From NCBI GenBank assembly GCA_964499275.1, contig CAZCKO010000004.1:13418-77417 (forward strand): a stretch of 64,000 nt of DNA, written 5' to 3'. The translations under genes were made by a program, and so were the position numbers. Positions 5,218 to 56,019 of the stretch are shown piece by piece; position 1 is the first letter of the stretch; the number at the start of each line of letters is the position of its first letter. The DNA comes from an uncultured Rhodospirillaceae bacterium (GTDB lineage: Bacteria; Pseudomonadota; Alphaproteobacteria; MPNO01; UBA2964). Below the pieces are notes generated by a model. The model was given only the letters and a program-made list of their open reading frames with translations, did no database searches and had not been told where the DNA came from.

Positions 5218-5232
5218 TAGTCGTCGGGCGGA

Positions 5233-5697
5233 TTACCCGCGACCACGATAAGATGGTACATCTTGATCAGGTATCCAGAGTCCTGATGGTGGGGTGCCAC
5301 TTTGATAAAATACATCGATTGGTATTCCACCGCGCGGGTACCAATATCCACCAATACGTAGCCACTTTGGCGAAAGTAATTCCTCCAACTTTTTTCCTAT
5401 CCCGACGGTACAATCCTCGTGAAAGGCGCCGTGGTTCCGATATGAGCCAAGGTAGAGTTTCAAGGACTTGCTTTCGATGATCCAATCAGTAGGTGCATAA
5501 TCTATGATCAAGTGAGCAAAATCGGGTTGTCCGGTAATGGGACAAAGACTCGTGAATTCTGGGCAGGTGAAACGAATGAGATAGGTCTGACCAATTTGAG
5601 GGTTACCAACTCGTTCAAGCGTGGCTTGTTCAGGAGAAGCAGGCAGTGGAGTAGCATTTCCCAGTTGGGTTAGTATTTCGTCTTTGGTCTTTGTCAT
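5233..5697 (-). CDS. queF: NADPH-dependent 7-cyano-7-deazaguanine reductase QueF (type I)
   Basis: 154 aa. Carries the QueF motif [15 protein letters not shown] and the conserved Cys in [12 protein letters not shown]. Confidence 0.85.
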
Positions 5698-5713
5698 GAA
5701 AACTATCCATCCC

Positions 5714-32151: not shown

Positions 32152-32369
32152 TGATTTCCTCCGCATTTCTGTTGAAAGGACTTTTACACGGTCAGGGCAA
32201 CGGAGCAAGCGGGCGTCCCTTGGTTTTGTATTCATTTGGATTTGACAAATTTAGGTCCATTTATCACCCTAATAATATGAAGTGCCTGACAGCCTAGGTC
32301 TAAATTATTATTTGAATTAACCTATTCTAATGTAGTTAAAATTTAACTCCGCGATTGGGAGGACACGGA

Positions 32370-33335
32370 ATGATTATCTATTCAGAACCTATGACAACGA
32401 GTGACCTTCCTGTAATTGATATTGGGCCCAGCTTCGCTGAGGATAAGATAGCCAGTGAAATAATTTCTAAGGAGATTGGCAAAGCATGCCAAGATACTGG
32501 TTTTTTTTATATTACAAATCACGGGGTTGATCAGGCTTTAATTGATGGAGCATTCAAAGCGACGAGCCGATTTTTTGATCAACCAGAAATTTGGAAAAAA
32601 AGATGGAATAAGCGAGGTTATTCTAACGGGTATGAACCGCCGGAAACACAAAGGCTTGATAATGAATCCCCGGGAGACATAAAAGAATCCTTTAACTTTA
32701 CAATGGGAAATATTCCGGGGACTGTCGGTTACAAAGAAAATATTTGGCCGGATAATTTTCCGGGATTTCGAGATCAATTGGAATCTTATAAAAAAGCGGT
32801 ATGGAAGGTAGGGCTTCAGGTGTCTCGTCTTATTTCTTTGTCACTGGGAATGCCGTTTGATTATTTTGATCCAACATTTTCGCAGCAAAAGTCACCGCTT
32901 CGCATCCTACGGTATCCTCCTCATCCTGAAGATACCGAATACAATCAATTGGGTTGTGGTGCTCATACCGACTGGGGATGGATAACCCTTTTGTTGCAAG
33001 ATACCGCGGGGGGCCTTGAAGTTGAAACAGCTTCGGGTGAGTGGGTTCGCGTTGAGCCAATTCCCGGCACATTTGTTGTAAATTTGGGAGATATAATGTT
33101 GCGTTGGACAAATTCCAAATACCACTCGAGCTTACACCGAGTGATGAATAATAATTCTGGGAGAAATCGTCATTCCATCGTTTTGTTTTTTAACCACGCG
33201 CATGATACCCATGTTGAGTGTCTTCCTAGTTGTCTCTCCGTCGGCGAAACACCAATCTTTTTGCCATGCACTGCTGGTGAGCATTCAACTCAACGCTATA
33301 AAGAATCGAGATCTAATTTAGGAATGACGAGTTGA
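32370..33335 (+). CDS. 2-oxoglutarate/Fe(II)-dependent oxygenase (isopenicillin N synthase-like family)
   Basis: N-terminal DIOX_N-like region (LPVIDIG...). 2OG-FeII_Oxy core with HxD...H (..CGAHTDWGWITLL.., ..SSLHRV..). GGGAGGA RBS before the ATG at 32370. Confidence 0.75.
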   Translation: MIIYSEPMTTSDLPVIDIGPSFAEDKIASEIISKEIGKACQDTGFFYITNHGVDQALIDGAFKATSRFFDQPEIWKKRWNKRGYSNGYEPPETQRLDNESPGDIKESFNFTMGNIPGTVGYKENIWPDNFPGFRDQLESYKKAVWKVGLQVSRLISLSLGMPFDYFDPTFSQQKSPLRILRYPPHPEDTEYNQLGCGAHTDWGWITLLLQDTAGGLEVETASGEWVRVEPIPGTFVVNLGDIMLRWTNSKYHSSLHRVMNNNSGRNRHSIVLFFNHAHDTHVECLPSCLSVGETPIFLPCTAGEHSTQRYKESRSNLGMTS

Positions 33336-38177: not shown

Positions 38178-38395
38178 AAAATACCTCCCTGATATTTCAT
38201 TTGCTCCTTTTATTATTTTTGGAGCATTTAATGTAACTAACGGTCTTTAGTCTAGACGAACTGAATTGTCCTGTTAACCCGGAAATGAATAAAATATATA
38301 GAATGTCAGAACACTTGGGCTCGTTTCACACTCCAAATGAGTGTTATCATTCAGTTAAAAGCTTTGTAAGCTACGTTGGTGTTAGTGAGATCATA

Positions 38396-39241
38396 ATGGC
38401 GAATGTAAAACCAAATCTGGATATTGTACCGACACACCCCGCAGTTGGGGCGAGGGTTACTGGTGTTGATTTGAGCAAACCCGTCAGCGAAGGCCTGGCT
38501 CAACAGATGCGTAATATTTTTATTCAATACTCCGTTCTATGTTTTCCAGATCAGGACATTACTAATGATCATCAGGCTGATTTTGCTAAAATTTTTGGTC
38601 ACGCTGATACAGCCGACCGGAGTACGGGAGATCCCGATAATAAGCAGTCCAAACGCGGGGTTATGTATGTAAGTAATATTCGGGAAGATGGTAAGTTAAT
38701 AGGCGTTCTTCCCGATGGAGAGATGCATTTCCATTCAGATGGTGCACACCGAGAGAAGCCTTACAGGGCCACCACGCTTTTTGCTTTGGAGGTACCCTCG
38801 ATTGGTGGTGAGACAAAGTTTTCTGCCATGGCGGCGGCATATGAGGCGTTAACAAAACCTCAGCGGTCTAGTCTGGAAAACCTGCAAGCGCGTCACGTTT
38901 TTAACTATAACAAAACTACTCGCGAAGAGATGCGTCGGGATAAAGATGTTTCATATGCCATCCACCCTCTGGTTAAAATTCATCCAGATTCAGGAAGGAA
39001 GTCACTTTATTTAAGCCGTTTAATGACAAGTGATATTATTGGTATGGCGACAGAAGAAAGTGAAAATTTATTAATCAAGCTATTTGCCCACTGTGAAAAA
39101 TCAGAATTTGTTTACGAGCACAAATGGGTTCCGGGCGATCTCGTGATTTGGGATAATCGCAGTGTCAACCATGCTAGAAATGATTTTCCTGGTGATCAGC
39201 GTCGATTACTTCGACGTTATACAATATCCGAACCGAACTAA
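38396..39241 (+). CDS. TauD/TfdA-family Fe(II)/2OG dioxygenase
   Basis: HxD motif (..MHFHSDGAH..) and C-terminal ..WDNRSVNHAR..RRL..RYTI.. typical of TauD/TfdA. The internal ATG at 38396 gives the family-typical length of about 281 aa. Confidence 0.75.
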   Translation: MANVKPNLDIVPTHPAVGARVTGVDLSKPVSEGLAQQMRNIFIQYSVLCFPDQDITNDHQADFAKIFGHADTADRSTGDPDNKQSKRGVMYVSNIREDGKLIGVLPDGEMHFHSDGAHREKPYRATTLFALEVPSIGGETKFSAMAAAYEALTKPQRSSLENLQARHVFNYNKTTREEMRRDKDVSYAIHPLVKIHPDSGRKSLYLSRLMTSDIIGMATEESENLLIKLFAHCEKSEFVYEHKWVPGDLVIWDNRSVNHARNDFPGDQRRLLRRYTISEPN

Positions 39242-39253
39242 TGAAATTTTTAG

Positions 39254-40096
39254 TTAGTCAAACCTATCGACCGTCATGTTTCCGAGTTCACGAACTTTAG
39301 CACGATATGCTTGGACGGCTTGCTTGTGGCGAACGGTATTACCTATATCATCTTCAGCAATAGGCGCTAATTCGTGATCAAAATTTCCAAATAGGTCTTT
39401 TCCGCGCACTAGCAAAGCGCTGGTCCGGGTTTCACCTAATTGTTTCAGATATGGCGGATGATAAATAAATGTGATGCCCATTCGTCGGTCTTTACCCTTG
39501 TTTGGAGAAGAACCATGAACCAGGAACGCGTGATGAATTGATGCCTCACCAGGCTGCAGTATCGCCGATACGGGGTCAGTGACGTCGTCGCTTATATCCA
39601 CATTTTGCCCACTCGACAGCATGTTTCCTTGCCTGGTGTCCGGCGTTTTTAGGTTCCGCAATCCACTTTTATGGGAGGTTGGCATAAAACGCATGCAACC
39701 ACTTTTCTCGTTAGCAGGAGAAAGAGCTATCCAGGCGGTTAAAACTTGGCACGGTTTATGCCCAAAGTAAGTATTGTCTTGGTGCCAACTAACGTAGGCA
39801 TCATCATTAGGCTCCTTTATCCACGCTGTGTTGTGATAAACCATTATGTCGGGTCCAATAAGGTCCTCAACTGTATCAAGTAATTTAGGGTGGGTTGCCA
39901 TTTCGAAAGCCCACGGAAATCGCAAATAAAATTTTGTTTGTCCAATACCGCGAAAAAAATCGCCCATTGTTGATTCGGTGTTTTCTACATGTGTACGGTA
40001 TTTGGTTACCTCATCACGATCTAAAATTTGGACCGGAGTGACGAACCCATTTTGTCTATATCCTGCTATCTGGCTTTCGTTCAAAACCTTAGGCAA
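39254..40096 (-). CDS. Phytanoyl-CoA dioxygenase (PhyH) family Fe(II)/2OG oxygenase
   Basis: N-terminus LNESQIAGYRQNGFVTPVQILDRDEV and ..WHQD..H.. are typical of the PhyH family. 280 aa. Confidence 0.75.
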   Translation of the reverse strand: MPKVLNESQIAGYRQNGFVTPVQILDRDEVTKYRTHVENTESTMGDFFRGIGQTKFYLRFPWAFEMATHPKLLDTVEDLIGPDIMVYHNTAWIKEPNDDAYVSWHQDNTYFGHKPCQVLTAWIALSPANEKSGCMRFMPTSHKSGLRNLKTPDTRQGNMLSSGQNVDISDDVTDPVSAILQPGEASIHHAFLVHGSSPNKGKDRRMGITFIYHPPYLKQLGETRTSALLVRGKDLFGNFDHELAPIAEDDIGNTVRHKQAVQAYRAKVRELGNMTVDRFD

Positions 40097-40983: not shown

Positions 40984-41841
40984 TTATACAGCGTTAATCA
41001 TAGGCGACCCTTCAAGGGTGCAACGTCTCAAAAGCCGTTTTTCGTCAGCCGGAAAGTCAGTTCGAGCATGGGTTGAACAACGGTTGTCCCACATTGCCAA
41101 GTCACCTTTCTTCCAAACATGTTCATATACAACTCTTGGGTCTTCCGCGATTTCAATAAGTTTTCGCAGAATTTGATCGCTGTCTTCGTTCTCCAAATCT
41201 TCAATAATCGCAGAAATGAGTCGGCTGACGTAAAGTGCCGTTTTGCCAGTTTCAGGGTGTTTGACAAAAATAGGTTGCCACTGATGTTGAATGCCATCGA
41301 GACCATTTTTAAGGTCAACTTTTTCCAGCATGGTAAAGTTATATGCTTGTAAAACTTTTCGGCCTTGCAGTTTTTTTCTCAAGTCCTCCGGGATGTTTTC
41401 ATATGCTAGATATTGATTTGCAAATTTAGTATTTCCCCCGGTCGAGGGAAGTTCTATAGCATGTAATAGTGTCGCTTTGTGAGGTTCCGGCCTATAACTC
41501 ATATCGTGATGAAACCACATTTCCCCATCTTGTAATGAACCTATGTAGTTGCCATTCTCATCACGCTGATTGGTTACCAACATAATACTCCCATCATAAC
41601 CATTGGTAACTTCGTTCTGGTTCTCAAGCGGTGTTGCTCTAATACCAACATTACCAAACTGATTGGCGAATGCTACTTGTTCATCCTTTGTGAGTGATTG
41701 GTCCCGAAATATTAATACGATATGATCAAGCCAGGCTTGGTAAATTTCCTCGATGTTGTTTTTGCCGAGCGGTTTACGGAGATCAATTTCTGTTATTTCA
41801 GCACCTATTGGGCTGTTAAATGGCGTGATTTTATATGTCAC
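40984..41841 (-). CDS. TauD/TfdA-family Fe(II)/2OG dioxygenase
   Basis: ..MWFHHDMSY..(HxD), ..WDNRCSTHART..RRLLRRCTL... Paralog of 41870..42748. Confidence 0.8.
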   Translation of the reverse strand: MTYKITPFNSPIGAEITEIDLRKPLGKNNIEEIYQAWLDHIVLIFRDQSLTKDEQVAFANQFGNVGIRATPLENQNEVTNGYDGSIMLVTNQRDENGNYIGSLQDGEMWFHHDMSYRPEPHKATLLHAIELPSTGGNTKFANQYLAYENIPEDLRKKLQGRKVLQAYNFTMLEKVDLKNGLDGIQHQWQPIFVKHPETGKTALYVSRLISAIIEDLENEDSDQILRKLIEIAEDPRVVYEHVWKKGDLAMWDNRCSTHARTDFPADEKRLLRRCTLEGSPMINAV

Positions 41842-41869: not shown

Positions 41870-42748
41870 TTAAGAAGCTGCGATCATTTCCTGACCGAGC
41901 AAGGTGCAACGACGTAAAAGCCTACGTTCATTTGCTGGAAAGTCGGTGCGTGCATGGCAAGAGCAGTAATTATCCCACATCGCCAATTCTCCTTCCGTCC
42001 ATGCATGTTCATAAAAATTACTGCCAGCTTCGCTTATCGTGTAAAGCTCTTCGAGGATGGCGTCGCTTTCATCGCGGGGTATTCCATCGATCCTGGCGGT
42101 CATAAGCCTGTTGACATACAGTGCTGTGCGCCCCGTTTCTGGATGACGAACGAAGATTGGCTGCGATCTGTTATGAATTCCAGTCATATCGCCGTCAATA
42201 TCAACCGTTTGTGTCATATGGTAATCATATACCTGCAACGCCGTTCGGTCTTTGAGTTCATTTTTTAATTTTTCTGGTATCAGGTCGTAGGCACGGTACA
42301 TATTTGAAAAACGTGTGTTGCCGCCGGTTGAAGGGATATCAATGGCATAAAGCATTGTGCCTTTATGCGGCTTTGGCATGTAACACATGTCATGATGAAA
42401 ATACATTTCTCCGTCGGGTAGGGACCCCACGTAGCGTCCTTTTTCATCTTTTACATTGGTCACCAACATTATTGCATCGTTATAATTTGCGCCTTCGGGT
42501 CGTTGTTCTGGGCGGCGCGACCGTGTTCCGGTATCGCCAAACTTTTTGGCAAAGTTAAGCTGCTGGTTCTGCGTTAGTTCTTGTTCCGGGAAGATTAAAA
42601 CGATGTAATCATGCCAAGCTTGAGTAATTTCTTTAACTGCCTGAGCATTAAGTGGTTTGCCAATATCGACCCCAGTTACTTTTGCCCCGAGTGCATCAGA
42701 GAGCGGGGTAACGGTTAGTTTTGATTTAAGAACACTAGCCATAGTCAC
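41870..42748 (-). CDS. TauD/TfdA-family Fe(II)/2OG dioxygenase
   Basis: ..MYFHHDMCY.., ..WDNYCSCHART..RRLLRRCTL... 292 aa. Confidence 0.8.
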   Translation of the reverse strand: MTMASVLKSKLTVTPLSDALGAKVTGVDIGKPLNAQAVKEITQAWHDYIVLIFPEQELTQNQQLNFAKKFGDTGTRSRRPEQRPEGANYNDAIMLVTNVKDEKGRYVGSLPDGEMYFHHDMCYMPKPHKGTMLYAIDIPSTGGNTRFSNMYRAYDLIPEKLKNELKDRTALQVYDYHMTQTVDIDGDMTGIHNRSQPIFVRHPETGRTALYVNRLMTARIDGIPRDESDAILEELYTISEAGSNFYEHAWTEGELAMWDNYCSCHARTDFPANERRLLRRCTLLGQEMIAAS

Positions 42749-42862: not shown

Positions 42863-43582
42863 ATGAGAGAGAAAAATTCTGAAATAAACCGTTCTCTGTT
42901 AGATATTTTTGATCAACAAGCGTCAAAGGCCGAGCGCGGAGAGTTGATTGGAGAGATTTATGACTTCCTCGCTTTGCTAAACGGCATCAAGCCTGTCTTT
43001 CTGCATGGACGTGGCCATACTCCTGTGGAATGGGTCGAACCAATCAAAAAGTTGGCTTGTGGTTTAAATTTTTTTGTCATTGAAGGTTTTTATTGGGATG
43101 CCACGCCTTATGACGAGTTCCCCAATTGGTATCAAGAGCATTGTCGCAATCAATTGTTGCCATTTCGAGCTTGGTATATTTGTAAAGAGGCGGAGTTAGC
43201 AGCTGCCATAAAAAATATTAACAATACAGGTGGGCGCCTAACGATGGCTGAAGAGGCCTCTTTGTTAGGCTATCCGGAGTGTTGTGTGCGTGCTCATTAT
43301 GAGCGCGCCTGTAGATACCATAGGGGCACTTTGTCTATCCTCAAACGTTTGGGAAAGGGTGATCAAAACCAAATGCAGGCCCTCGCGATTGGGAATGCGC
43401 ACCTTATTCCTGTAACGGCGCAAGAAATCGAAGACTTTGATTTTGCCTTTAAAATTCATGCACCAAGAGTAGGGAGTTGGAATATGTGTGACTCCTGTTC
43501 GAGAGGAGCCAAGCCCTTCTCGGATAATTTGGTAAAAAAATATTTAAGCGTAATTGAAAAAACCGGTTTGGCGATTTACTAA
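42863..43582 (+). CDS. Hypothetical Cys-rich protein
   Basis: 239 aa with no recognised family. Cys clusters YPECCVRAHYERACRYH and CDSCSRG. Confidence 0.4.
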   Translation: MREKNSEINRSLLDIFDQQASKAERGELIGEIYDFLALLNGIKPVFLHGRGHTPVEWVEPIKKLACGLNFFVIEGFYWDATPYDEFPNWYQEHCRNQLLPFRAWYICKEAELAAAIKNINNTGGRLTMAEEASLLGYPECCVRAHYERACRYHRGTLSILKRLGKGDQNQMQALAIGNAHLIPVTAQEIEDFDFAFKIHAPRVGSWNMCDSCSRGAKPFSDNLVKKYLSVIEKTGLAIY

Positions 43583-44482: not shown

Positions 44483-45409
44483 CTAGGCCGCTTTCTTTGT
44501 GGTTTTTTTATCGAGTAACCCAGCCCGCTTCAAAACTCCATCTAGGCGTTTTTCAAGCTCCTTAGATGCTGGCATCATGGGAAGACGGTGTTCATTTTTC
44601 GGCATGATACCCAATTTTTTCATCATGTATTTCATGGGTGTTGGGTTCGTGTCAAAAAATACTGCCTGGTTAATCTCGAAAAGGTCATAGTGAATTTTTT
44701 GTGCGGCCTTCATATTTCCTTTCCATACCTGTTCGCACATGCGGGCGAGTTCCCCCGGCATTAAGTTTCCGACCGCATTCATAAGGCCGCAGGCACCAAC
44801 CGTCATCATTGGGTAAGATAGATCCTCAAGGCCCACAAAGATACGAAAATCCTTTCCAAAGTGATCAATACATTTCGACACGAAACCAAGGTCATCAACG
44901 GCGTGTTTCATACCGACAAAGTTGGGACAGTTTTTACTGATTTGATCAAGTGTACTTAGCGTAACGGAAACAGCAGCGCGCCCTGGGATATGGTAGATCA
45001 TCCAAGGGAGTTTTGTTCTTTTACCGAGGTCACTGTAGTAAGCAATGAGCCCACTTTGAGGAGGGCGGATGTAATAGGGGGTCACGATCAATAATGCGTC
45101 AGCGCCTGCCTTGTCAGCGTGCTCCGTCAGTGCCGCGGTTTCAGCTAGGCTCTGCGAGCCTGTTGCCGCGACAATAGGAACTTTTCCACCGGCGGCTTCT
45201 ATGGCAACATCGACTGTGCGGTTGCGCTCTTCAGTTGTTAGTGTGGATGGTTCAGAGGTGGTGCCATTTACGAGAATTCCGTGGGAGCCATTTTTGACTT
45301 GGAACTCTACTAAACCGGCATAAGCATCGTAATCTATCGATCCATTTCTAAAAGGTGTGATAAGTGGGGGTATAGACCCTTTCAAAAATGTTTTTGGTAA
45401 ACGCATCAT
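44483..45409 (-). CDS. Dihydrodipicolinate synthase/N-acetylneuraminate lyase (DapA) family lyase
   Basis: ITPF...G..DY.A...LVEFQ...G..GILVNGTTSE motif with the Schiff-base Lys region typical of the DapA family. Start taken at the Met that avoids overlap with the upstream cupin gene. Confidence 0.7.
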   Translation of the reverse strand: MMRLPKTFLKGSIPPLITPFRNGSIDYDAYAGLVEFQVKNGSHGILVNGTTSEPSTLTTEERNRTVDVAIEAAGGKVPIVAATGSQSLAETAALTEHADKAGADALLIVTPYYIRPPQSGLIAYYSDLGKRTKLPWMIYHIPGRAAVSVTLSTLDQISKNCPNFVGMKHAVDDLGFVSKCIDHFGKDFRIFVGLEDLSYPMMTVGACGLMNAVGNLMPGELARMCEQVWKGNMKAAQKIHYDLFEINQAVFFDTNPTPMKYMMKKLGIMPKNEHRLPMMPASKELEKRLDGVLKRAGLLDKKTTKKAA

Positions 45410-45413
45410 TGGT

Positions 45414-46532
45414 TCAGCTCGCAATTTTTTCACGATTAGTATCAAAACCCATTTCCGCCCCAAGGACACTCCAAGGTTTCTTTAGGTCTTCTTGCCACAA
45501 TAAAGATTCCATTACGATGTTCAGTGGCTGGTCCTGGATTGTTAATTCGTAGATTGGATCCGTACCGGTACTGGCATGATTGTGTACACCCCAGCCCGGC
45601 GCGGTGAGCAGTAAATCACCGGACTGCCACTCATAAACTTTACCTTCGACGGTTGAACGTCCTTCTCCTTGAAAAATATAGTTCATAGCTGCAGATACGT
45701 GGCGGTGTGGTTTATCTACAATGCCGGGGGGACGAATGGTAATTGTCGCAAAAAAGTTTGGTGTGGTGCCGTTGGTCCGGCCAGTCATCGGATTCCATAA
45801 AAGGTAAAGACGGCGACCCACGTAGTCAGAACCAAGTGCCGAAAGTTTATCGAGCTCGGCTTTGACTTTTTTCCATGGCCAATGAAGCGCACGCGACTCA
45901 ACGGATTCGGGCGCTATTAAAATTTCATAAGGCATAAGCCATGCACCATCGTCTGTAAGCTCGAATGTACCGTAGGGACTTTTTCGTCGGGGATCGTCTT
46001 CAGCAATCTCTCCTTCTTTTTTTTCTTCCACTACTTGAACATCAGCCGGGGGGTCTTCTTCAACAATGTGGACGTTCATCTTTTCAAGGAGCGGAGCGTT
46101 AGTATACGTCAAGCGGACCTGGACTTCATCTGTATCATTGACATGGATATAGGTTTGCATTGATGGAAAGTTGAACACGTCAAATTGCTCAAAATCTATT
46201 CGTTTCCCACCAACGACGGAGTGTCCTCCTCCCCGAATACAGAAATTAACCTGTGTTGAGTTGTGGCGGATGGGGCGTGTCTGCTCCCCCGGGTTAAGGA
46301 CTTCAAGAATTGGGCGAATACCCGGTGCCAAGCCCAAGCCAACGCCGAGTTTGTGTGAATCCGGGTGAACAATCCAGCTTTGTCGACGGCCATTATTGGG
46401 TGTTGCCATATTAGACAATCTTTCAATTTCGTCATCGAAGTCGGATTTTTTTATGATGGCGGGCTCCCATAATTCGGGAGAGGGTTCTGTCGTACCTGAT
46501 TTGTCTATGAAAATTCCTTTTTGCTCGGCCAT
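45414..46532 (-). CDS. Cupin-domain protein (bicupin, gentisate 1,2-dioxygenase-like?)
   Basis: 372 aa with two cupin-like beta-barrel regions, including a His-rich segment ..GWGVHNHASTG... The family assignment is tentative. Confidence 0.45.
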   Translation of the reverse strand: MAEQKGIFIDKSGTTEPSPELWEPAIIKKSDFDDEIERLSNMATPNNGRRQSWIVHPDSHKLGVGLGLAPGIRPILEVLNPGEQTRPIRHNSTQVNFCIRGGGHSVVGGKRIDFEQFDVFNFPSMQTYIHVNDTDEVQVRLTYTNAPLLEKMNVHIVEEDPPADVQVVEEKKEGEIAEDDPRRKSPYGTFELTDDGAWLMPYEILIAPESVESRALHWPWKKVKAELDKLSALGSDYVGRRLYLLWNPMTGRTNGTTPNFFATITIRPPGIVDKPHRHVSAAMNYIFQGEGRSTVEGKVYEWQSGDLLLTAPGWGVHNHASTGTDPIYELTIQDQPLNIVMESLLWQEDLKKPWSVLGAEMGFDTNREKIAS

Positions 46533-46552
46533 GACTCTTCTCCATTAAATTC

Positions 46553-46585
46553 AATTCATATCTCAATAGGTTTGAGATATGAATT
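46553..46585. promoter_or_regulatory. Perfect 14-bp inverted repeat AATTCATATCTCAA-N5-TTGAGATATGAATT, 20 bp upstream of the cupin gene start; candidate operator or 5'-UTR stem-loop
   Basis: Read directly from the sequence. It sits in the 255-bp intergenic region between UbiD paralog 3 and the cupin-DapA-like genes. Confidence 0.4.
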
Positions 46586-46787
46586 TAAGTTCGTTGACCT
46601 TCTGATTAGGCCAGAGATCTAAAATATTAATTACTTGGATACTTTATTTTCTCTCTGCATTAAAGGTCCTTCTATTGTCTTTTATTGGTCGCGGTCGAAA
46701 TTCTTTCCAAGTAAGACGAGGGTTCTAGCGGTCCAGGGTTGGTTCGTACCCAATCGATTGCCTTAATCACATCCCTATAAAAATTGT

Positions 46788-48191
46788 TCAAGGCAAAAAG
46801 TCCTCAATATTTACGGAGCTATAGTTGGTTGGCATTGCACGGTCAAACCGTGTTTTATCTTCGATTCGTGTGCTCCACGGTTTAGTAGCGTCGATTGCAA
46901 CCTTAGTGCCGATCCTGTACATCGGGCTCATACCCGGGACAATGTCTGATACGTTGTCGAGAGACCAAATTCGTGTATTATCAATTTTGAAAACATCACT
47001 ATCAGCATGCACTCGGGTCGTTAAAGACCAGAATACCTGATTGAGGTTAGCGGCATCCATATCCTCATCAATTGCTATGGCGAGTTTTGGATGAAGATAG
47101 GGGCTTGATAATGCGGCCATTAGGGCGGTTTTAGCCTGACCGGCGCTGCGTGGCCTAATCTTTATGACAACAGCCATCAGACCAGATACACCAAGGCATC
47201 TTACATCCAAGAGGTCCATCCCTCCTTCAACCTTTGACAAGTGTTCAAAAAGGGCGGCTTCAATGCATGTACCCGTGATAGATTGAGGATCCGTCATGGG
47301 TGCTCCGGAATGCATTCCATAGAATATTGGATCTTTACGATGTGTAATTGCTTTGAGGACGAAAATTTCTGTTGACCCTTCTTCAGCATATCCCCCAGTA
47401 ACTTCACCAAAGGGCCCTTCCTCCGTCATCGCATCAGGTAGGATTTCTCCTTCTATAATTATTTCGGCATCTGCTGGAACCTCAAGATCACTGGTTTCGC
47501 ATTTTACTATTCGCACTGGGTCCTCTAGCAAGCCTCCAGCTAATGATAATTCATCGATTCCGTAGCGTGTTGTAAAGCCACCTGCGTACAAAATGGCCGG
47601 ATGCACACCGACTACCATCGCGACAGGCATTGGTTGATTAAGGGTTTGATATTTTTGATAAGTTCTCAAAGCGTGACGCGGACAAATCAAAAATCCACTT
47701 CGATCTGGCCCCAATATTTGCTGACGATGATATGACATATTTCGTATGCCAGTTTCTGGGTCTTTGATCACGGCCATGCCGGCAGCGATGTAAGGACCTG
47801 GGTCTTTCTCGGATGTCCACATTGCTGGAAGTTTAGTTAAATCTGCATCATTTCCCGTGAGAATTACTTCTTTCACCGGTGCATCTTTAGCTTCAACTAT
47901 AATAGGGTCTAAGGGTTTTTTAATGCGTTGAACGACCGTTGGAATTACCTCCTCTTCTGATACCCCAAAACCAATAGCCCATTTACGACGGTCGGTGATA
48001 ACTTGGCTCGCCAGTCGCCAGCCAGGAAATCCTTCAAGGTTGGTAAATAGGGTTGATTTTCCAAACCGATCATAGGTTTTCCAACCAATAGCCGAAACAT
48101 CCTCAGACGGATTGGTTGGCTTTTCTATGCGGATGAGTTCTCCTTGCTGTTCAAGGTTTTGAACATGGCCACGGAATGATTGGTCGCGCAT
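46788..48191 (-). CDS. UbiD-family decarboxylase, paralog 3 (divergent)
   Basis: 467 aa. UbiD-like segments (..EEGPFGEVTGGY.., ..MAVVIKI..). More distant from paralogs 1 and 2. Confidence 0.7.
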   Translation of the reverse strand: MRDQSFRGHVQNLEQQGELIRIEKPTNPSEDVSAIGWKTYDRFGKSTLFTNLEGFPGWRLASQVITDRRKWAIGFGVSEEEVIPTVVQRIKKPLDPIIVEAKDAPVKEVILTGNDADLTKLPAMWTSEKDPGPYIAAGMAVIKDPETGIRNMSYHRQQILGPDRSGFLICPRHALRTYQKYQTLNQPMPVAMVVGVHPAILYAGGFTTRYGIDELSLAGGLLEDPVRIVKCETSDLEVPADAEIIIEGEILPDAMTEEGPFGEVTGGYAEEGSTEIFVLKAITHRKDPIFYGMHSGAPMTDPQSITGTCIEAALFEHLSKVEGGMDLLDVRCLGVSGLMAVVIKIRPRSAGQAKTALMAALSSPYLHPKLAIAIDEDMDAANLNQVFWSLTTRVHADSDVFKIDNTRIWSLDNVSDIVPGMSPMYRIGTKVAIDATKPWSTRIEDKTRFDRAMPTNYSSVNIEDFLP

Positions 48192-48419
48192 TGAGGTATT
48201 ACCCTACTTTAGAAGTTATAGAACTATGTATATTTTGCGCGGCAGGGCATGCGAGTGCAACAGTAACAGTCTGTTATCTTGGTTATATATCAAAATAGAA
48301 GGGATTTCAGCTTATTTGGATTTTTAAACAGGCATTTATGACGTAATTTAAATATTTAGAGTGCCGACCATTTTCTATAACAGTTTTATACTCTAAGTTA
48401 ATGTTTTTAATATTTTTTT

Positions 48420-49619
48420 ATGAACGAGAAAGATCCTTCCATGACATCCTCTTTTAATCCTCCTGTTAGAAAACTTATGGGACCGGGGCCCTCTGATGTT
48501 CATCCTCGTGTACTTGGAGCGATGGCGCGTCCTACGATCGGTCATCTCGACCCCGAGTTTTCTCGTATGATGGAAGAGATTAAAGATTTGCTTCGGTATG
48601 CTTTTAAAACAACAAATTCCCTCACCATACCGGTGTCTGGTCCTGGTTCGGTTGGAATGGAAACCTGTTTTGTTAATCTTATTGAGCCGGGTGATAAGGT
48701 TATAGTGTGCCAAAACGGGGCATTTGGTGGACGAATGAAGGAAAATGTCGAGCGATGTGGCGCTGCACCTGTGATGATCTTGGATGATTGGGGCAAACCG
48801 GTAGATATTAACAAAGTAGAAGATACTTTAAGAAATAATTCTGATGTTAAGGCATTAGCCTTCGTGCATGCAGAGACATCAACAGGAGTACAATCTGACG
48901 CCGCTGGCATTTGTAGGTTGGCAAATGAGTATGGAGTATTGTCGATCGTTGACGCTGTCACTTCATTGGGAGGCACTCCGGTTCTTACTGATGAATGGAA
49001 GGCTGATGCTGTGTACTCTGGGTCGCAAAAATGTCTTTCATGCATGCCGGGTATTTCACCAGTAACTATAAGTCAAAGAGCTGCTGATGTTGTGAGAAGT
49101 CGTAACCAAAAGGTACAAAGTTGGTTCATGGATTTAAATTTGGTAATGGGCTACTGGAGCGGGGAGGGGTCCCGTGTTTACCATCACACTGCACCTATCA
49201 ATCCGCTTTATGCGATCCATGAAGCTTTGGTGATGTTATCAGAGGAGGGTCTCGAACAGGCATGGGAACGCCACGCGAAAATGCATGATGCCCTTCGGGA
49301 GGGGCTAGAGGCCATGGGTTTGTCTTTGATTGTTGAGAAAAAATACCGTCTTCCACAATTAAATACCGTGTCTGTTCCTGAGGGCGTAGATGAGGCAAAG
49401 GTAAGGGCTACTTTATTGTCGCGTTACAATTTGGAAATCGGTGCGGGCCTTGGTGATCTCGCAGGAAAGGTCTGGCGTGTCGGTCTTATGGGTCAGAGTG
49501 CTACCGGGGAACATGTGACCCTGTTCTTGAGTGCTATGGAAGATGCTCTTTTGCAGCAAGGTGCTGCTGGTATAAAAGCTGGTGCAGCTTTGCCGGCGGC
49601 ACGCGCTGTGATTGAATAA
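48420..49619 (+). CDS. Class V aminotransferase (serine--glyoxylate/alanine--glyoxylate aminotransferase-like, PLP-dependent)
   Basis: ..LMGPGPS.. N-terminus. PLP-Lys context ..VYSGSQKCLS... 399 aa, typical of AGT/SGAT family. Confidence 0.8.
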   Translation: MNEKDPSMTSSFNPPVRKLMGPGPSDVHPRVLGAMARPTIGHLDPEFSRMMEEIKDLLRYAFKTTNSLTIPVSGPGSVGMETCFVNLIEPGDKVIVCQNGAFGGRMKENVERCGAAPVMILDDWGKPVDINKVEDTLRNNSDVKALAFVHAETSTGVQSDAAGICRLANEYGVLSIVDAVTSLGGTPVLTDEWKADAVYSGSQKCLSCMPGISPVTISQRAADVVRSRNQKVQSWFMDLNLVMGYWSGEGSRVYHHTAPINPLYAIHEALVMLSEEGLEQAWERHAKMHDALREGLEAMGLSLIVEKKYRLPQLNTVSVPEGVDEAKVRATLLSRYNLEIGAGLGDLAGKVWRVGLMGQSATGEHVTLFLSAMEDALLQQGAAGIKAGAALPAARAVIE

Positions 49620-49631
49620 CATTGGTCATCC

Positions 49632-50378
49632 ATGGAAATTGAAACATTTAATAGAGGCGGTTATCGCTATATTCGCGGGCCATTTCAATATTCGGGTGGT
49701 GTTGCAGCTGAGCCGGGGTTTTGTATTGAACGAGCTAGGTTCAAAAAGCCATTGCCGATTAACAAGGGCTTCGAACGGATAGAGGAGTATTTGACCGGGA
49801 TAGGGCGTCCTTTAATAGCACTCTGCGCATGCGAGTTGCGCTCGCCAGCTCCGTTTACTGAACAAGGGTTTGTAGATTTCAACAGAATTTATGTCGGTAC
49901 ACTTGAGCGCTGGGGAATCTTCATCAACGAGGAAAATCCGATCGCGCGTTCCAACGTTTGTCCGGAGAATAATCCGCCTTTGGAACCCTGTTTCGAGGCT
50001 TTCTCGTACACTGTCCCTGTATTAGAAAAAAATACCAGCTTCGTTATATCAGGCTCGGCGGAAGCGCCAGAGGGATTGGGGAGTTATGGTGACCGCATAA
50101 TACGGTTGGGTAACCAATCATCAGAAGCGATGCGTCAGAAAGCTAGGTATGTTCTTGGTGTCATGGAATCCCGTATGGCAGCACTTGGAAAAAAATGGAG
50201 CGATGCAACCGTAACGCAGAGTTATACGGTTTACGATTTGCATCCATTTTTAGCAGACGAAATAATTGCATGTGGAGCTGCTAGAAGTGGGCTCACCTGG
50301 TATTACGCTCGTCCACCTGTAGAGGGGTTAGATTTTGAGATGGATGTCAGAGGTGTTCCCACCGAAAGAGTAATTTGA
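49632..50378 (+). CDS. Hypothetical protein
   Basis: 248 aa, family not recognised. Good coding periodicity and no overlap. Confidence 0.4.
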   Translation: MEIETFNRGGYRYIRGPFQYSGGVAAEPGFCIERARFKKPLPINKGFERIEEYLTGIGRPLIALCACELRSPAPFTEQGFVDFNRIYVGTLERWGIFINEENPIARSNVCPENNPPLEPCFEAFSYTVPVLEKNTSFVISGSAEAPEGLGSYGDRIIRLGNQSSEAMRQKARYVLGVMESRMAALGKKWSDATVTQSYTVYDLHPFLADEIIACGAARSGLTWYYARPPVEGLDFEMDVRGVPTERVI

Positions 50379-50388
50379 CATCTTGATA

Positions 50389-51336
50389 TCAGGAATCTGA
50401 CGCTCCGTAATAAAGCATCACGGTATGTTTGGCTTCTGCAAAGAACAACCAACGCTCTATCATTGTTCCCACCATAACCAGAATTACCGCAAGTATGGCT
50501 CCGGGAATCTTAATCCATGGATCAGATTCAACAGTAATTAATGCAAGGCTCCAAGGAATAAGGAAATAGGTAAAGAAGGCCCACCGACGAAGTTTTTCCG
50601 CATGTTTTCGAGCAATATTAAACCCCATTTCCTGTTGTACATAATTTTCTTGAGTATTAGGGGCATCAAGTAATTTTACGGATCCAAGATCGCCAAGACC
50701 AGTTGCATGTTCTGGGGGTACCCAAGTGGGTGAAGTATCTAAAAACATCCAGTATTTTCGTTTGAGCCATAACGCTAGAATTCCCGTAATGACAACAATC
50801 ATACCAATTCCGGGTGTATGTAAATCAAATAGGTGTGCAAGAAGATTAAACCAAATACTTCCCGTCCATAGAGAGAATGCGAGATATACTCGAACCGTGT
50901 GACGATTAAACCATGCACGGACGGTTCGAAGCGTAGCATAAATCATTGACGTGGCGTATACCGTCAATACCGCGAAAAGTATTGTTAACACTGCCATAAG
51001 TCGCCAGGCGCCACCATGATCTTCGAAAATCACCCAGCCCATTGCAAAAAAACTAAAAGGAAAAAACCCCGAAACCGCTAAAATACCCTCGCGCGAGAGC
51101 CAAGAAGATCGCCACTGAGATAATGCCCGCCAGGCTCGTTCTGGATGCCCGAGATGGTATGTGGATGCAATGAGGCCACTAACTATCATGGAAAATGCGA
51201 AAAAAAATCCGGTAAAACCAAACCATCGAACGGGATCTATCCATTGTGCAGCGGCGAACAGACCCATCAAAAAAAGCAGACCGTATCCGGCGCCAGAAAA
51301 TGTTGTGAAAAATATTACGGAGTAAGCTGGGTGCAT
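50389..51336 (-). CDS. DmsC/NrfD-like membrane anchor subunit of a molybdoenzyme complex
   Basis: 315 aa, about 8 TM segments. Immediately downstream of the 4Fe-4S and Mo subunits. Confidence 0.6.
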   Translation of the reverse strand: MHPAYSVIFFTTFSGAGYGLLFLMGLFAAAQWIDPVRWFGFTGFFFAFSMIVSGLIASTYHLGHPERAWRALSQWRSSWLSREGILAVSGFFPFSFFAMGWVIFEDHGGAWRLMAVLTILFAVLTVYATSMIYATLRTVRAWFNRHTVRVYLAFSLWTGSIWFNLLAHLFDLHTPGIGMIVVITGILALWLKRKYWMFLDTSPTWVPPEHATGLGDLGSVKLLDAPNTQENYVQQEMGFNIARKHAEKLRRWAFFTYFLIPWSLALITVESDPWIKIPGAILAVILVMVGTMIERWLFFAEAKHTVMLYYGASDS

Positions 51337-51355
51337 GAAAGATTCTTAACCTTGA

Positions 51356-52111
51356 CTATCGTGTGAGTACTCGATCAATCCAGCGAAATAGACCGCCAGC
51401 TTCTTCACTCTCTTGATGCGCTACAATAGGCGTAAGTCGTTTTGGCTGTTCGCTCTGATAGGCAGCGCTTTTCGGTCGAGGGGGTAAATATTTATTTACT
51501 GGTTGGTAATGTAATTCCGGCATGAGATCGTAGCCTTGGCGTTCTTCAACAATCCGAGAGACATCAGAATTAGGATCGCCGAGATCACCGAAATGTCGCG
51601 CGTTTGCCGGGCAGGTTGAGACACATACCGGTAGTCGGTCGGTTTCTTCGAGGTTTTCGTTATAAATGCGATCTATGCATAGTGTGCATTTTTTCATTAC
51701 ACCAGAATCGCCGTCATATTCACGAGCGCCGTAGGGACAGGCCCAGCTGCACAGCTTGCAGCCAATACAAATATCTTCGTTAACGAGTACGATTCCATCT
51801 TCGGCTCGTTTATATGAAGCACCGGTCGGACAGACTTCTACGCAGGCAGGCTGTTCACAATGCAGGCATGACCGTGGAAAGTGCACGGTTCGGCCGTCAG
51901 CTCCTTGCCCGCACTCAAATGTATGGACGCGATTGAACCAAACACCCTCCGCATTCTGGCCAAATGGATCGTTGTCCGGAAGAGGGGCCGAATGCCCACT
52001 GGTATTCCATTCTTTGCAGTTTACAGCGCAGGCATGGCAGCCAACACAAATATCCAGGTCGATAACTAGACCTAGTTTCTTACCGGAAGTGTTTTGTGGA
52101 ATTTCGGTCAT
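51356..52111 (-). CDS. 4Fe-4S dicluster (DmsB-like) electron-transfer subunit
   Basis: Four Cys clusters (CVGCHACAVNC, CLHCEQPACVEVCP, CIGCKLCSWACP, CTLC...CVSTCP). 251 aa. Confidence 0.85.
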   Translation of the reverse strand: MTEIPQNTSGKKLGLVIDLDICVGCHACAVNCKEWNTSGHSAPLPDNDPFGQNAEGVWFNRVHTFECGQGADGRTVHFPRSCLHCEQPACVEVCPTGASYKRAEDGIVLVNEDICIGCKLCSWACPYGAREYDGDSGVMKKCTLCIDRIYNENLEETDRLPVCVSTCPANARHFGDLGDPNSDVSRIVEERQGYDLMPELHYQPVNKYLPPRPKSAAYQSEQPKRLTPIVAHQESEEAGGLFRWIDRVLTR

Positions 52112-55005
52112 TTTGGTTCTTCAAGCTTATGAGTGCGGGAATACATTCGTCCATATCGTAAAATTTTTGGTCTCTTCGGTAGGGCCTCGGGGGGGTGTAG
52201 AGTATCAAACTGAGGCTCACTCGTCTCATTTTCTTGGCCATCGGCCTTCTCAATGCGGACCCGTAAGTCGTACCACGCGGCTTGACCGGTTATGGGGTCG
52301 GAATTGGCATATCGGAACCCGTCTCCCTTTTCTGGTAGTAACTCGGAAATGACGTGATTGAGCAAAAATCCTTTTTTAGATTCTGGTGAGTCTGGATCTA
52401 AATTCCACGCTCCCGATTGCTTACCTATGGCGTTCCAAGTCCAGACTGTGAGTTCGTTTACGCCCTCCATAAGTCGAGCCTGTGTTTTAACCCTGCTGTG
52501 ATGACTTATTACCCAAACCCAGTCTCCATCTTCGATGTCAAAAGATTCTGCTGTTTTACGATTGATATAAAGTGGGTTTTTTCCATGAATTTGACGCAGC
52601 CAAGCATTTTGGGATCCCCAGCTTTGATACATAGCCATGGGCCGCTGGGTTAAAGCATGCATTGGATACAACTCGGTATTAATGGCTTCCCCCTCGAGTG
52701 GCGGATACCAAATTGGCATTGGATCAAAATATTTTTCAATTCGTTCTCGATACTTATCTGGTGGTTGTATTTGCCCATGACCTTGGGCTGCCAGTCTGAA
52801 TTTCTGCATTGGTTCTGAGTATACTTGTAGGATTATTTGATTAGATGCTCCTATAAAACCCACCGAGGCGGCATATTCTAGATAGTCACGATTGGCATGT
52901 TTAAAGTAGTGTTGTTCGGGTGGCAGCTTGTATTCCCAAAAGCAACCATTCTCTATATATTTATCCAGCTGATTCTTATTAGGGGCTCCTGTGCCGTGAT
53001 TTTTTCCGTCTTCACCGCGCCAGCCAGCAAGAGACCCAATGCCTGGGGCCCTTTCATGATTAACTATGTAATCCGGATATCCTCCTGGATATTTGGGGCT
53101 TCCGTCTTCATTTGTGAGTCCAGGTAATTTAATTCGGGCACCGAGGTCAATCAAAACACTTTGAAAAGGTCGGACATCTCGATCAGGCTCCACAACCGGT
53201 TGGCGAATGGAATCAGCAGCAGCTTCAGCGCTGCAGATCGGTCTATCTAAAAGTGATATACAATCCCAGCGTTCGAGATATGTTGTGTCGGGTAATACCA
53301 AATCAGCATAGGCTACCATTTCTGAAAAATAGGTATCTGAATACAAAATTTTTGGTATTTTGTAATCGCCGGTTTCTTCATCCCTGGCCGTGAGCATTTC
53401 TTTCGTTCCTGCTGTATTCATCGAGGAATTCCAGCTCATATTGGCCATATACATGAACAAAAGATCGATTGGGTATGGGTCCTGATTGTGGGCATTGGTA
53501 ATAACCATATGCATCATGCCATGTGCCGCAATTGGCGCTTCCCATGAAAATGCATGGTCAATTCGTCTTGGTGTTCCATCCTCGTTGACCAATAAATCCT
53601 CCGGGCCAGCTGGAAATCCCAGGGGTGGTCCTGCCATAGGGGCACCCGGTACAATCTGATCGTCTTTACCGGTCGGTTTTAAAGGTGGAGGTGCTGCCTT
53701 TGGGAAAGGCGGCTTATAACGGAAGCCCCCAGGACAATCGATGCTACCCAAAAGAATTTGAAGCAGGTGAAGTGCGCGGCAGGTGTGAAAACCATTTGAA
53801 TGGGCGGAAATTCCTCGCATTGCATGCATAGAAACTGGCCGTCCGATCATTTTATCATGTCGACGGCCGGCCCAATCTGTCCACGGTTGTTCAATATTTA
53901 TCTCTTGTTCGAAAGCCGTCTCTGTAATTTCAGAGGCAATTCGGCGAATTGTTGAAGCTGATACCCCGGTTTCTTGTTCTGCGGCCTCTGGAGAGTATTG
54001 TTGGTTAAGATACCTTGTCGCCATTAAAGCGAAAGCTGGAACCGCTTCTCGGCTATCATCTAGACGAAATGAACCTGTTAAAGCGGGCGTGACACCAGCA
54101 AGGCGCGCGTCGGCAGCTTGATTTGTGCCGGTATCCCAACAAACCGGCTCGCCGTCGATACCTCGTGCGAACAAGCCGTCATCAGCGCCTCCGGGGTTTT
54201 GTATAACAAGCCAAGGTAAATTTGTGTACCGGACTATATAATCAAGATCAATTTTATCCGCTTTTAGGAGTTCGTGGACTAATGCCAGAATGAATTTACC
54301 GTCCGTACCTGGGCGAATACCTATCCATTCGTCTGCAATTGCCGAGTATCCAGTTCGGATCGGGTTTAATGAAACAAACTTGGCACCATTTTTCTTGAGT
54401 TTGGATAGGCCCGCTTTGATTGGATTGCTATCGTGATCTTCGGCCACTCCAAACATTAGCATGTATTTTGTTAATTCCCAGTCAGGTTCGCCAAATTCCC
54501 AAAATGAACCTCCGATGGTGTAAATTCCCCCCGCAGCCATATTAACCGAACAAAGACCACCGTGAGCAGCATGATTTGGTGTTCCAAATTGACTTGCCCA
54601 CCAACCAGTCAATGCTTGGCTTTGATCTCGCCCAGTAAAAAAAGCAAGTTTGCGAGGGTCTGATTTTCGAATATCGTTAAGCCATTTACTGGCGAGTTCT
54701 AAAGCTTCATCCCATTCGACCTCCTTAAACTCGGCTTTTCCACGTTCACCAACCCTTTTTAAGGGTTTTGTAAGGCGAGCTGGAGAATAATGGTTCATAA
54801 TTCCTGCAGAACCTTTGGCACACAACACCCCTTTGTTTACGGGGTGATCGCTATTACCCTCAATATAACGAATGCCGCCATCTTTCATGTGCACTTTGAT
54901 GCCACATCGGCAGTCGCACATGTAGCAGGTGGTATATTTTATTTCGTCGGAGACCGTAGGAGAGGTGTTGATCTCTTCAATCGGTTCAAAGTACCCACGT
55001 GTCAT
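52108..55005 (-). CDS. Molybdopterin (bis-MGD) oxidoreductase catalytic subunit, DMSO-reductase family, no Tat signal
   Basis: N-terminal [4Fe-4S] motif CYMCDCRCG...C. 965 aa molybdopterin oxidoreductase fold. 4-bp overlap with the FeS subunit. The N-terminus MTRGYFEPIEEINTSPT lacks a twin-arginine signal. Confidence 0.8.
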   Translation of the reverse strand: MTRGYFEPIEEINTSPTVSDEIKYTTCYMCDCRCGIKVHMKDGGIRYIEGNSDHPVNKGVLCAKGSAGIMNHYSPARLTKPLKRVGERGKAEFKEVEWDEALELASKWLNDIRKSDPRKLAFFTGRDQSQALTGWWASQFGTPNHAAHGGLCSVNMAAGGIYTIGGSFWEFGEPDWELTKYMLMFGVAEDHDSNPIKAGLSKLKKNGAKFVSLNPIRTGYSAIADEWIGIRPGTDGKFILALVHELLKADKIDLDYIVRYTNLPWLVIQNPGGADDGLFARGIDGEPVCWDTGTNQAADARLAGVTPALTGSFRLDDSREAVPAFALMATRYLNQQYSPEAAEQETGVSASTIRRIASEITETAFEQEINIEQPWTDWAGRRHDKMIGRPVSMHAMRGISAHSNGFHTCRALHLLQILLGSIDCPGGFRYKPPFPKAAPPPLKPTGKDDQIVPGAPMAGPPLGFPAGPEDLLVNEDGTPRRIDHAFSWEAPIAAHGMMHMVITNAHNQDPYPIDLLFMYMANMSWNSSMNTAGTKEMLTARDEETGDYKIPKILYSDTYFSEMVAYADLVLPDTTYLERWDCISLLDRPICSAEAAADSIRQPVVEPDRDVRPFQSVLIDLGARIKLPGLTNEDGSPKYPGGYPDYIVNHERAPGIGSLAGWRGEDGKNHGTGAPNKNQLDKYIENGCFWEYKLPPEQHYFKHANRDYLEYAASVGFIGASNQIILQVYSEPMQKFRLAAQGHGQIQPPDKYRERIEKYFDPMPIWYPPLEGEAINTELYPMHALTQRPMAMYQSWGSQNAWLRQIHGKNPLYINRKTAESFDIEDGDWVWVISHHSRVKTQARLMEGVNELTVWTWNAIGKQSGAWNLDPDSPESKKGFLLNHVISELLPEKGDGFRYANSDPITGQAAWYDLRVRIEKADGQENETSEPQFDTLHPPEALPKRPKILRYGRMYSRTHKLEEPK

Positions 55006-55155
55006 AAGGTAAACCTTTTTTGCTGGCTGGTTTGTTAAAAGAGAATAATGCTGTCGTCAAACCTTTGAGAATAGTTATTTCCAAACTATCATTCTTTTGC
55101 ATTATACCAACTCGAAAGTTGAGATTACTCTATTAGTAGGATTAAAATTTGATAT

Positions 55156-56019
55156 ATGAATTTTGCAGTAAAAACCTTTTTCGATAGTGAAACTAACAAC
55201 GCAACATATGTGGTGTGGGATAACCAATTTAAGAATTGTATAATTATCGACTCTCTCCTTAATTTTGATGTAGCTGCTGGAAAAATCTTTACTGAGGCAG
55301 CTGATAATCTGATCTCTTTCATCACGGAAAATGGATTAAAGGCCCGGTGGATTTTGGAAACCCATATTCATGCGGACCATTTAAGTGCCGCTTCGTATTT
55401 GAAACAAAAGCTGGGAGGCAGGACTGGGATTAGCGCAGGGGTTTGTGAAGTACAAAGATATTTTAAAACGCTCTATGGATTGGGGGATGAGTTTTCATGT
55501 GATGGGTCACAATTTGATCACCTTTTTACCGATGGTGAAAAGTTCTCCGTTGGGACTCTTGAGGTAAAGGTAATTCATACGCCGGGTCACACCCCTTCGT
55601 GTGCAACTTATATAATTGATGAGAACGCCTTTACTGGTGATACATTCTTTATGCCAGATTCAGGCACTGCGCGGTGCGACTTCCCAGGGGGTAGTTCAAA
55701 GGAACTTTATAAATCACTTCGAAAGATTTTGGCTCTCCCACCTGAAACACGCCAATTTATCAACCATGATTATGGTTGCGGCGGTTCACGAGCCTTTTGC
55801 TGCGAAACATCGGTTGCCGAACAGTGCCACTCTAATGTTCACATGAATGGAAAGACAACTGAAGATCAGTTTATTTCGATGCGAAGGGAGCGTGATGCTA
55901 CACTGGCGGTTCCACGCCTAATATTACCCGCGATCCAAGTAAATATAAGGGCGGGCAACCTGCCAATGGCGGACCAAAATGGAAAATTTTACCTAAAAAT
56001 TCCGATCAATTCGTTCTAG
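55156..56019 (+). CDS. MBL-fold metallo-hydrolase
   Basis: HxHxDH motif (ETHIHADHLSAA). 287 aa. Confidence 0.75.
   Translation: MNFAVKTFFDSETNNATYVVWDNQFKNCIIIDSLLNFDVAAGKIFTEAADNLISFITENGLKARWILETHIHADHLSAASYLKQKLGGRTGISAGVCEVQRYFKTLYGLGDEFSCDGSQFDHLFTDGEKFSVGTLEVKVIHTPGHTPSCATYIIDENAFTGDTFFMPDSGTARCDFPGGSSKELYKSLRKILALPPETRQFINHDYGCGGSRAFCCETSVAEQCHSNVHMNGKTTEDQFISMRRERDATLAVPRLILPAIQVNIRAGNLPMADQNGKFYLKIPINSF

Follow-up and report, generated by a model that had tools for sequence, protein, structure and literature searches.

SoeABC and related molybdoenzymes

SoeABC is the sulfite:quinone oxidoreductase of Allochromatium vinosum and Aquifex aeolicus; SoeA carries a molybdenum-bis(pyranopterin guanine dinucleotide) cofactor (Mo-bis-PGD) and one [4Fe-4S] cluster, SoeB carries four [4Fe-4S] clusters, and SoeC is an NrfD-like membrane protein (PMC8076601). 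The enzyme was first reported in Ruegeria pomeroyi and counts among the major cytoplasmic sulfite-oxidizing enzymes of A. vinosum (PMC6335251); for A. aeolicus, biochemical work subsequently established that the enzyme has sulfite:quinone activity (Boughanemi 2020, as cited in PMC8076601). The peripheral subunits of SoeABC are placed on the membrane's N-side, so an inverted orientation is expected for SoeC, while the related Psr/Phs complexes are exported by the twin-arginine translocation (Tat) system and face the periplasm (PMC8076601). Here, we analyzed a stretch of 64,000 nucleotides (the window) from contig CAZCKO010000004.1 of an uncultured Rhodospirillaceae bacterium. From its sequence, an operon in this window very probably encodes SoeABC, a cytoplasm-facing, membrane-bound sulfite:quinone oxidoreductase (EC 1.8.5.6).

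The three-gene operon consists of tightly packed open reading frames on the minus strand, running from position 55005 to position 50389. The first gene, soeA (52108-55005), encodes the Mo-bis-PGD catalytic subunit of 965 amino acids (108.1 kDa, calculated), which we assigned from its Pfam domains (Molybdop_Fe4S4, Molybdopterin, and Molydop_binding) and from the naming of its protein cluster. The ATG of soeB (51356-52111) overlaps the soeA stop codon by 4 nucleotides (nt) (ATGA); the gene encodes a ferredoxin subunit of 251 amino acids (27.9 kDa, calculated) with a four-cluster Fer4_11 domain, in which the four [4Fe-4S] Cys groups begin at C22, C82, C115, and C142. After a gap of 19 nt follows soeC (50389-51336) for a DmsC/NrfD-type, quinone-interacting anchor of 315 amino acids (36.0 kDa, calculated), which matches Pfam DmsC with an Expect value (E-value) of 1e-19. 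An earlier note on this DNA had described a Mo subunit of 965 amino acids, a 4Fe-4S subunit, and a DmsC-like anchor, and the reading frames and Pfam matches bear out this make-up. We take the subunit sizes of 108, 28, and 36 kDa to be close to those published for A. vinosum. Among the approximately 60 open reading frames of the window that were scanned, there was none for a TorD/DmsD-type chaperone.

All cofactor motifs expected of SoeABC are present in SoeA and SoeB. The FS0 [4Fe-4S] motif of SoeA is C27-x2-C30-x3-C34-x27-C62, and Cys152, which aligns with Cys173 of Thermus thermophilus PsrA (PDB accession number 2VPW), is the putative Mo ligand; in the PsrA structure, Cys173 is reportedly the residue that binds Mo (Jormakka et al. 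2008). The FS0 motif has a small peculiarity. It reads CYMCDCRCG in the window (Asp at residue 31, positions 54913-54915) and CYMCACRCG in nearly all homologues, and the Asp is shared with only one other protein (P0129), a member of the same 90% cluster.

SoeA belongs to a very tight family: when 5.8 billion proteins were searched, hundreds of sequences of ~960 to 975 amino acids proved to be 70 to 87% identical to it. A member of the 90%-identity cluster of the window SoeA carries the JGI label "sulfite dehydrogenase (quinone) subunit SoeA," as do several homologues with 71 to 72% identity, and a member of the 90%-identity cluster of the window SoeB is labeled "SoeB." The window operon is thus nothing out of the ordinary within this known family and is labeled SoeA/SoeB already in one public source. 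The locus may look unassigned because the NCBI-derived names in these clusters ("formate dehydrogenase," "DMSO [dimethyl sulfoxide] reductase," or the generic "molybdopterin oxidoreductase") differ from SoeA and SoeB. The lesson for annotation is that, with such names and without a SoeA model in NCBIfam, SoeABC is easily mistaken for something new.

Curated models and solved structures place SoeA nearest to the thiosulfate and polysulfide reductases. Its best NCBIfam score was obtained with PhsA (233 bits; cut-off, 694); among the other models scored were dmsA_ynfE (144; cut-off, 778), ArrA (98; cut-off, 1600), TtrA (87; cut-off, 1750), and narG (36; cut-off, 1084). A search of the PDB found no SoeABC structure and returned PsrA (2VPW) as the best solved structure (E-value of 9e-41). 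PsrABC of T. thermophilus (2VPW-2VPZ) and PhsABC (Salmonella PhsA) also resemble the window complex in their four-cluster B subunit and NrfD-type C subunit. However, SoeA is ~200 residues longer than PsrA and aligns well with it only over the N-terminal ~250 residues, and the window complex differs from Psr/Phs in having no Tat signal and in the opposite charge bias of its anchor.

Could the operon then encode a SoeABC-like enzyme with another small sulfur or oxyanion substrate, such as a quinol-dependent thiosulfate, polysulfide, or tetrathionate reductase or an arsenite oxidase? The proximity to PhsA and PsrA speaks for this, and a Thioalkalivibrio genome survey of 2019 pointed out that there was only genetic evidence for SoeABC activity at that time and described a divergent SoeA group II with ~55% similarity to group I (PMC6382920). 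A Thioalkalivibrio transcriptome study that mentions SoeABC reportedly puts forward a gene as a candidate for alternative arsenite oxidation. We consider such a substrate unlikely. The PhsA score is far under its cut-off, the JGI KO-type naming is SoeA, and the window SoeA belongs to the main alpha-/gammaproteobacterial family (62 to 87% identical), unlike a distant tier at ~55% (P0171). Moreover, the neighboring gene encodes a persulfide dioxygenase, which would make sulfite, and sulfite:quinone activity has meanwhile been demonstrated with the A. aeolicus enzyme (Boughanemi 2020, in the account of PMC8076601).

Absence of a Tat leader and orientation of the anchor

The N terminus of SoeA is MTRGYFEPIEEINTSPT, and a scan of the first 60 residues detected neither an RR pair nor a hydrophobic stretch. 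The first 40 residues of SoeB and of SoeC also lack an RR motif. Upstream of the soeA ATG at position 55005 the frame reads *RQHYSLLTNQPAKKVYL-M. It is closed by a stop 17 codons before the ATG, and none of the possible start codons (ATG, GTG, and TTG) occurs between the two; hence, a longer, leader-bearing SoeA is impossible. The N terminus and the closed upstream frame confirm what the earlier note had read, a Tat-less catalytic subunit with a Cys cluster that starts at about residue 27, and the stop excludes the upstream in-frame start with a Tat motif for which the note had proposed to look.

The same short N terminus is found throughout the family. None of the ~130 full-length homologues with 70 to 100% identity to SoeA has a Tat (RR) motif, and their Cys cluster begins between residues 21 and 47, except in a single protein where it begins at residue 68 behind a long N terminus that was probably mis-called. 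Twin-arginine motifs (RRHFL and TRRDFL) reappear only in representatives with ≤40% identity from a library of 1.84 billion proteins, which returned mostly fragments and was used only to see where Tat motifs reappear. The alternative explanation, that SoeA is a periplasmic DmsA/PsrA-type enzyme whose leader was lost to a mis-called start or a truncation, has a precedent in the superfamily, because starts are mis-called there and one representative (P0176) opens with the apparent hydrophobic part of a truncated Tat signal. For the window it is refuted by the in-frame stop upstream of soeA, and the ~130 independent homologues with the same N terminus and the inverted charge bias of the anchor also speak against it, leaving a negligible probability. 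The earlier note had regarded the absence of a Tat leader as an anomaly. Our analysis does not bear this out; because the ~130 homologues are Tat-less and the literature places the peripheral subunits of SoeABC on the cytoplasmic side, the absence is a family-wide hallmark of SoeABC. This enzyme has been described since 2012-2013 and was characterized biochemically in 2020, and the lack of a Tat leader is its textbook property.

The topology of the anchor, another check named in the note, was assessed by a count of positive charges. SoeC has eight transmembrane helices predicted from hydropathy, with 19 lysine and arginine residues in those loops that share a side with the termini versus 3 on the opposite side, and therefore both the N and C termini are predicted to be cytoplasmic. 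The same script gave 4 versus 8 for Escherichia coli DmsC, which places the termini in the periplasm, opposite to SoeC. The measured topology of E. coli DmsC agrees with periplasmic termini. The termini of PsrC are likewise on the P-side, matching the result for DmsC (PMC8076601). The bias of the window SoeC is shared by all family members with eight predicted transmembrane helices (36/36; medians of 19.5 versus 1).

SoeC also shows the residue pattern of the quinone site. The residues given in a review for A. aeolicus SoeC (aq_1231) are Ser6, His65, Ser82, Ser85, and Glu87; their counterparts in the window are S6, H61, S78, S81, and E83, with an identical spacing from the His to the Glu, and these are conserved in 95 to 100% of 41 family members. 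To judge from the membership in this family, SoeC is presumably heme-less.

Hence, with Tat-less subunits and the charge bias of the anchor, the complex almost certainly faces the cytoplasm, as the earlier note had supposed. E. coli DmsABC has the same A/B/C architecture, and the window anchor belongs to the Pfam DmsC family. However, DmsA has a long twin-arginine leader (SRRGLV) and the window SoeA has none, the DmsA models score far below cut-off, and the charge bias of DmsC is opposite. NarGHI is likewise a cytoplasm-facing, quinone-linked complex iron-sulfur molybdoenzyme that does not export its catalytic dimer, but the narG score of SoeA is only 36 bits and the window anchor is of the DmsC family and not NarI. 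NarI is a di-heme b anchor unrelated to DmsC/NrfD.

The window complex thus resembles the SoeABC enzymes of A. vinosum (Alvin_2491-2489 = ADC63403-1), A. aeolicus (SoeC, aq_1231), and R. pomeroyi in its three-subunit make-up, with Mo-bis-PGD and FS0, a four-cluster iron-sulfur subunit, and an 8-helix, presumably heme-less anchor; in the lack of signal peptides; in the predicted cytoplasmic orientation with an inverted anchor; and in the SoeC quinone-site pattern. No substantial difference was found. The uncultured host is not a sulfur lithotroph but a marine heterotroph of the Rhodospirillaceae-like kind, and the partner of the window soeABC is a persulfide dioxygenase gene in place of dsr, hdr, or tusA.

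The divergent persulfide dioxygenase gene

The gene divergent from soeA, pdo (55156-56019, plus strand), encodes a type II persulfide dioxygenase of 287 amino acids. Its match to NCBIfam Blh (359 bits) spans the dioxygenase portion of that model, and in the PDB it matches entries 9G8T (E-value of 4e-99) and 4YSK/4YSL (E-value of 2e-91). Presumably, 4YSK is the type II persulfide dioxygenase of Pseudomonas putida. The "MBL-fold [metallo-β-lactamase-fold] hydrolase" that the earlier note had listed next to the operon can therefore be named more precisely from the Blh and PDB matches, and the class V aminotransferase listed with it is indeed present.

We compared the best 80 of at least 600 matching loci, in which SoeA is 62 to 87% identical to that of the window. 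Most of these loci are alphaproteobacterial and a few are gammaproteobacterial, and Allochromatium, Aquifex, and Ruegeria are not among the best 80. The SoeB gene is directly downstream of soeA in 75 loci and the order soeA-soeB-soeC is kept in 68, most of the loci short of SoeB or SoeC being on contigs that end early. The flanks of soeABC are variable. The same divergent pdo-soeA pair is present at L003, L004, L006, and L011 with differing outer flanks, and three further loci have a persulfide dioxygenase gene within 4 kb; across the alphaproteobacteria, the pair is thus found again with no fewer than three kinds of flanks.

We hypothesize that SoeA, holding Mo-bis-PGD and one [4Fe-4S] cluster, would oxidize cytoplasmic sulfite to sulfate at the Mo center and that SoeB, through its four [4Fe-4S] clusters, would relay the electrons to SoeC. 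The latter, as an 8-helix, heme-less NrfD/DmsC-type anchor inverted with respect to PsrC and DmsC, would reduce quinone near the cytoplasmic face. Since the assembly of the three subunits would take place entirely from the cytoplasmic side, a Tat leader would not be needed. The persulfide dioxygenase probably supplies the sulfite from glutathione persulfide, such that the pair would turn sulfane sulfur into sulfate and dispose of toxic sulfite; the cleavage of organosulfonates could be another source. We tentatively extend this to the idea, which we rate as somewhat less probable than its opposite, that the divergent pdo-soeABC genes are a self-contained, co-regulated module with which aerobic marine heterotrophs oxidize persulfide in the cytoplasm to sulfate, and in which the O2-dependent dioxygenase makes sulfite and SoeABC sends its two electrons to the quinone pool. 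If this is true, the module would recover energy from a step that is usually seen as pure detoxification. The locus in any case adds a data point, in that uncultured marine Rhodospirillaceae-like heterotrophs would carry cytoplasmic sulfite oxidation beside a persulfide dioxygenase.

Several points weigh against the assignment as SoeABC and against its coupling to the dioxygenase. For none of the three subunits did an NCBIfam equivalog reach its cut-off, NCBIfam having no SoeA model. The support for orthology to the experimentally studied SoeA proteins (ADC63403.1 of A. vinosum and those of A. aeolicus and R. pomeroyi) is indirect and comes from automated KO-type naming, the tight conservation of the family, and the agreement of SoeC residues with those of aq_1231. 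The topology of SoeC is a prediction from charge bias. A persulfide dioxygenase gene is a neighbor in only 7 of the 80 related loci, and a study of Beggiatoa detected dioxygenase activity but no SoeABC, which makes their coupling non-obligatory (PMC11507549).

The 150-bp intergenic region between the divergent soeA and pdo (55006-55155, no strand) contains promoter-like hexamers and two palindromes with AACT/AGTT half-sites, ATAGTTtggaaatAACTAT (55071-55089) and CAACTttcgAGTTG (55108-55121). The palindromes may be candidate operators and could serve a candidate sulfur-responsive regulator. The stretches shared with the closest relative (L003) are short, for example, TATAATGCAAA and TTTGACGnCAGC, and the palindromes are weakly conserved there. 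A promoter scan of the 150 bp found sites no more frequently than expected by chance. With only short conserved stretches and a scan at chance level, we rejected a shared operator in this region.

The flanks of the related soeABC loci have some recurring genes, namely, those for a MocR-type pyridoxal phosphate-dependent regulator (12 loci), alanine dehydrogenase (7 loci), an EamA transporter (7 loci), betaine-homocysteine methyltransferase (7 loci), and an omega-aminotransferase (4 loci), seen at L007, L013, L035-L037, L039, L045, L050, L052, L053, and L069. To us, the combination of a MocR regulator, alanine dehydrogenase, and omega-aminotransferase recalls the catabolism of aminosulfonates of the taurine type, presumably another source of sulfite. 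It suggests a link of soeABC to aminosulfonate catabolism, which we regard as a lead only.

Aromatic catabolic genes and other neighbors

On the soeC side of the operon, positions 44483-50378 hold a probable aminoaromatic catabolic cluster with a CnbZ equivalog (2-amino-5-chloromuconate deaminase; 363 bits, cut-off of 220), the class V aminotransferase, a 5-aminosalicylate/gentisate 1,2-dioxygenase-like cupin, a UbiD decarboxylase, and an HpaI/DapA-like (dihydrodipicolinate synthase [DHDPS]-type) aldolase. The earlier note had seen in the operon a part of such an aromatic catabolic island and suggested that its product, facing the cytoplasm, could hydroxylate or dehydrogenate a (hetero)aromatic substrate independently of oxygen; such an enzyme would be akin to pyrogallol transhydroxylase or resorcinol hydroxylase. 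The adjacent genes fit this proposal, as does the Tat-less SoeA, since pyrogallol-phloroglucinol transhydroxylase, like acetylene hydratase, is a Tat-less cytoplasmic Mo/W-bis-PGD enzyme. However, both of these enzymes are soluble and have no membrane anchor, and the family of the window SoeA has a conserved anchor of the DmsC type. SoeA matches acetylene hydratase (2E7Z) weakly (E-value of 4e-23), and its 33 PDB matches with an E-value of ≤1e-10, with PsrA as the top one, do not include pyrogallol transhydroxylase. In addition, the aromatic genes are transcribed in units other than that of soeABC, with cnbZ convergent to soeC, and genes for CnbZ, the class V aminotransferase, UbiD, the cupin, and DHDPS are within 7 kb of soeA in none of the 80 related loci; the neighbor that does recur is the persulfide dioxygenase, the likely producer of sulfite. 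The proposal is therefore not supported, and we consider an aromatic substrate very improbable compared with sulfite as the substrate of SoeABC.

The UbiD decarboxylase of this cluster is one of three paralogues of the prenylated flavin mononucleotide-type family in the window (21402-22895, 30673-32235, and 46788-48191), which sit among genes for a coenzyme A ligase, a thiamine diphosphate enzyme, and transporters of the MFS and TTT families. The first two score best with phenylphosphate carboxylase beta and the third with the generic UbiD model and VdcC, none of them at the cut-off of a specific equivalog.

Three TauD-family Fe(II)/2-oxoglutarate dioxygenase paralogues are encoded 8 to 16 kb from soeABC and score 140 to 167 bits with TauD (cut-off, 313). 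Nearby are a PhyH-family protein and a 2OG-Fe(II) oxygenase, and the oxygenases of this group are located at 32355-33335, 38285-39241, 39254-40096, 40984-41841, and 41870-42748. The TauD-family paralogues might release sulfite from sulfonates and thereby feed SoeABC.

Two further open reading frames yielded no family match, one at 23944-25263 (439 amino acids) with Pfam and NCBIfam and one at 42863-43582 (239 amino acids) with Pfam. The first 24 kb (983-23936) contain an unusually dense array of ten paralogous EamA/DMT-family transporter genes (983-1918, 7990-8889, 13760-19025, 20409-21305, and 22917-23936). Six of these are arranged head to tail (13760-14653, 14650-15534, 15531-16421, 16418-17281, 17209-18156, and 18153-19025) and are followed by a glutathione S-transferase gene (19022-19723). 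On the minus strand, 4078-7881 is a queuosine tRNA modification cluster (queG, queF, tgt, and queA), an ordinary housekeeping function, which suggests that the window is chromosomal.

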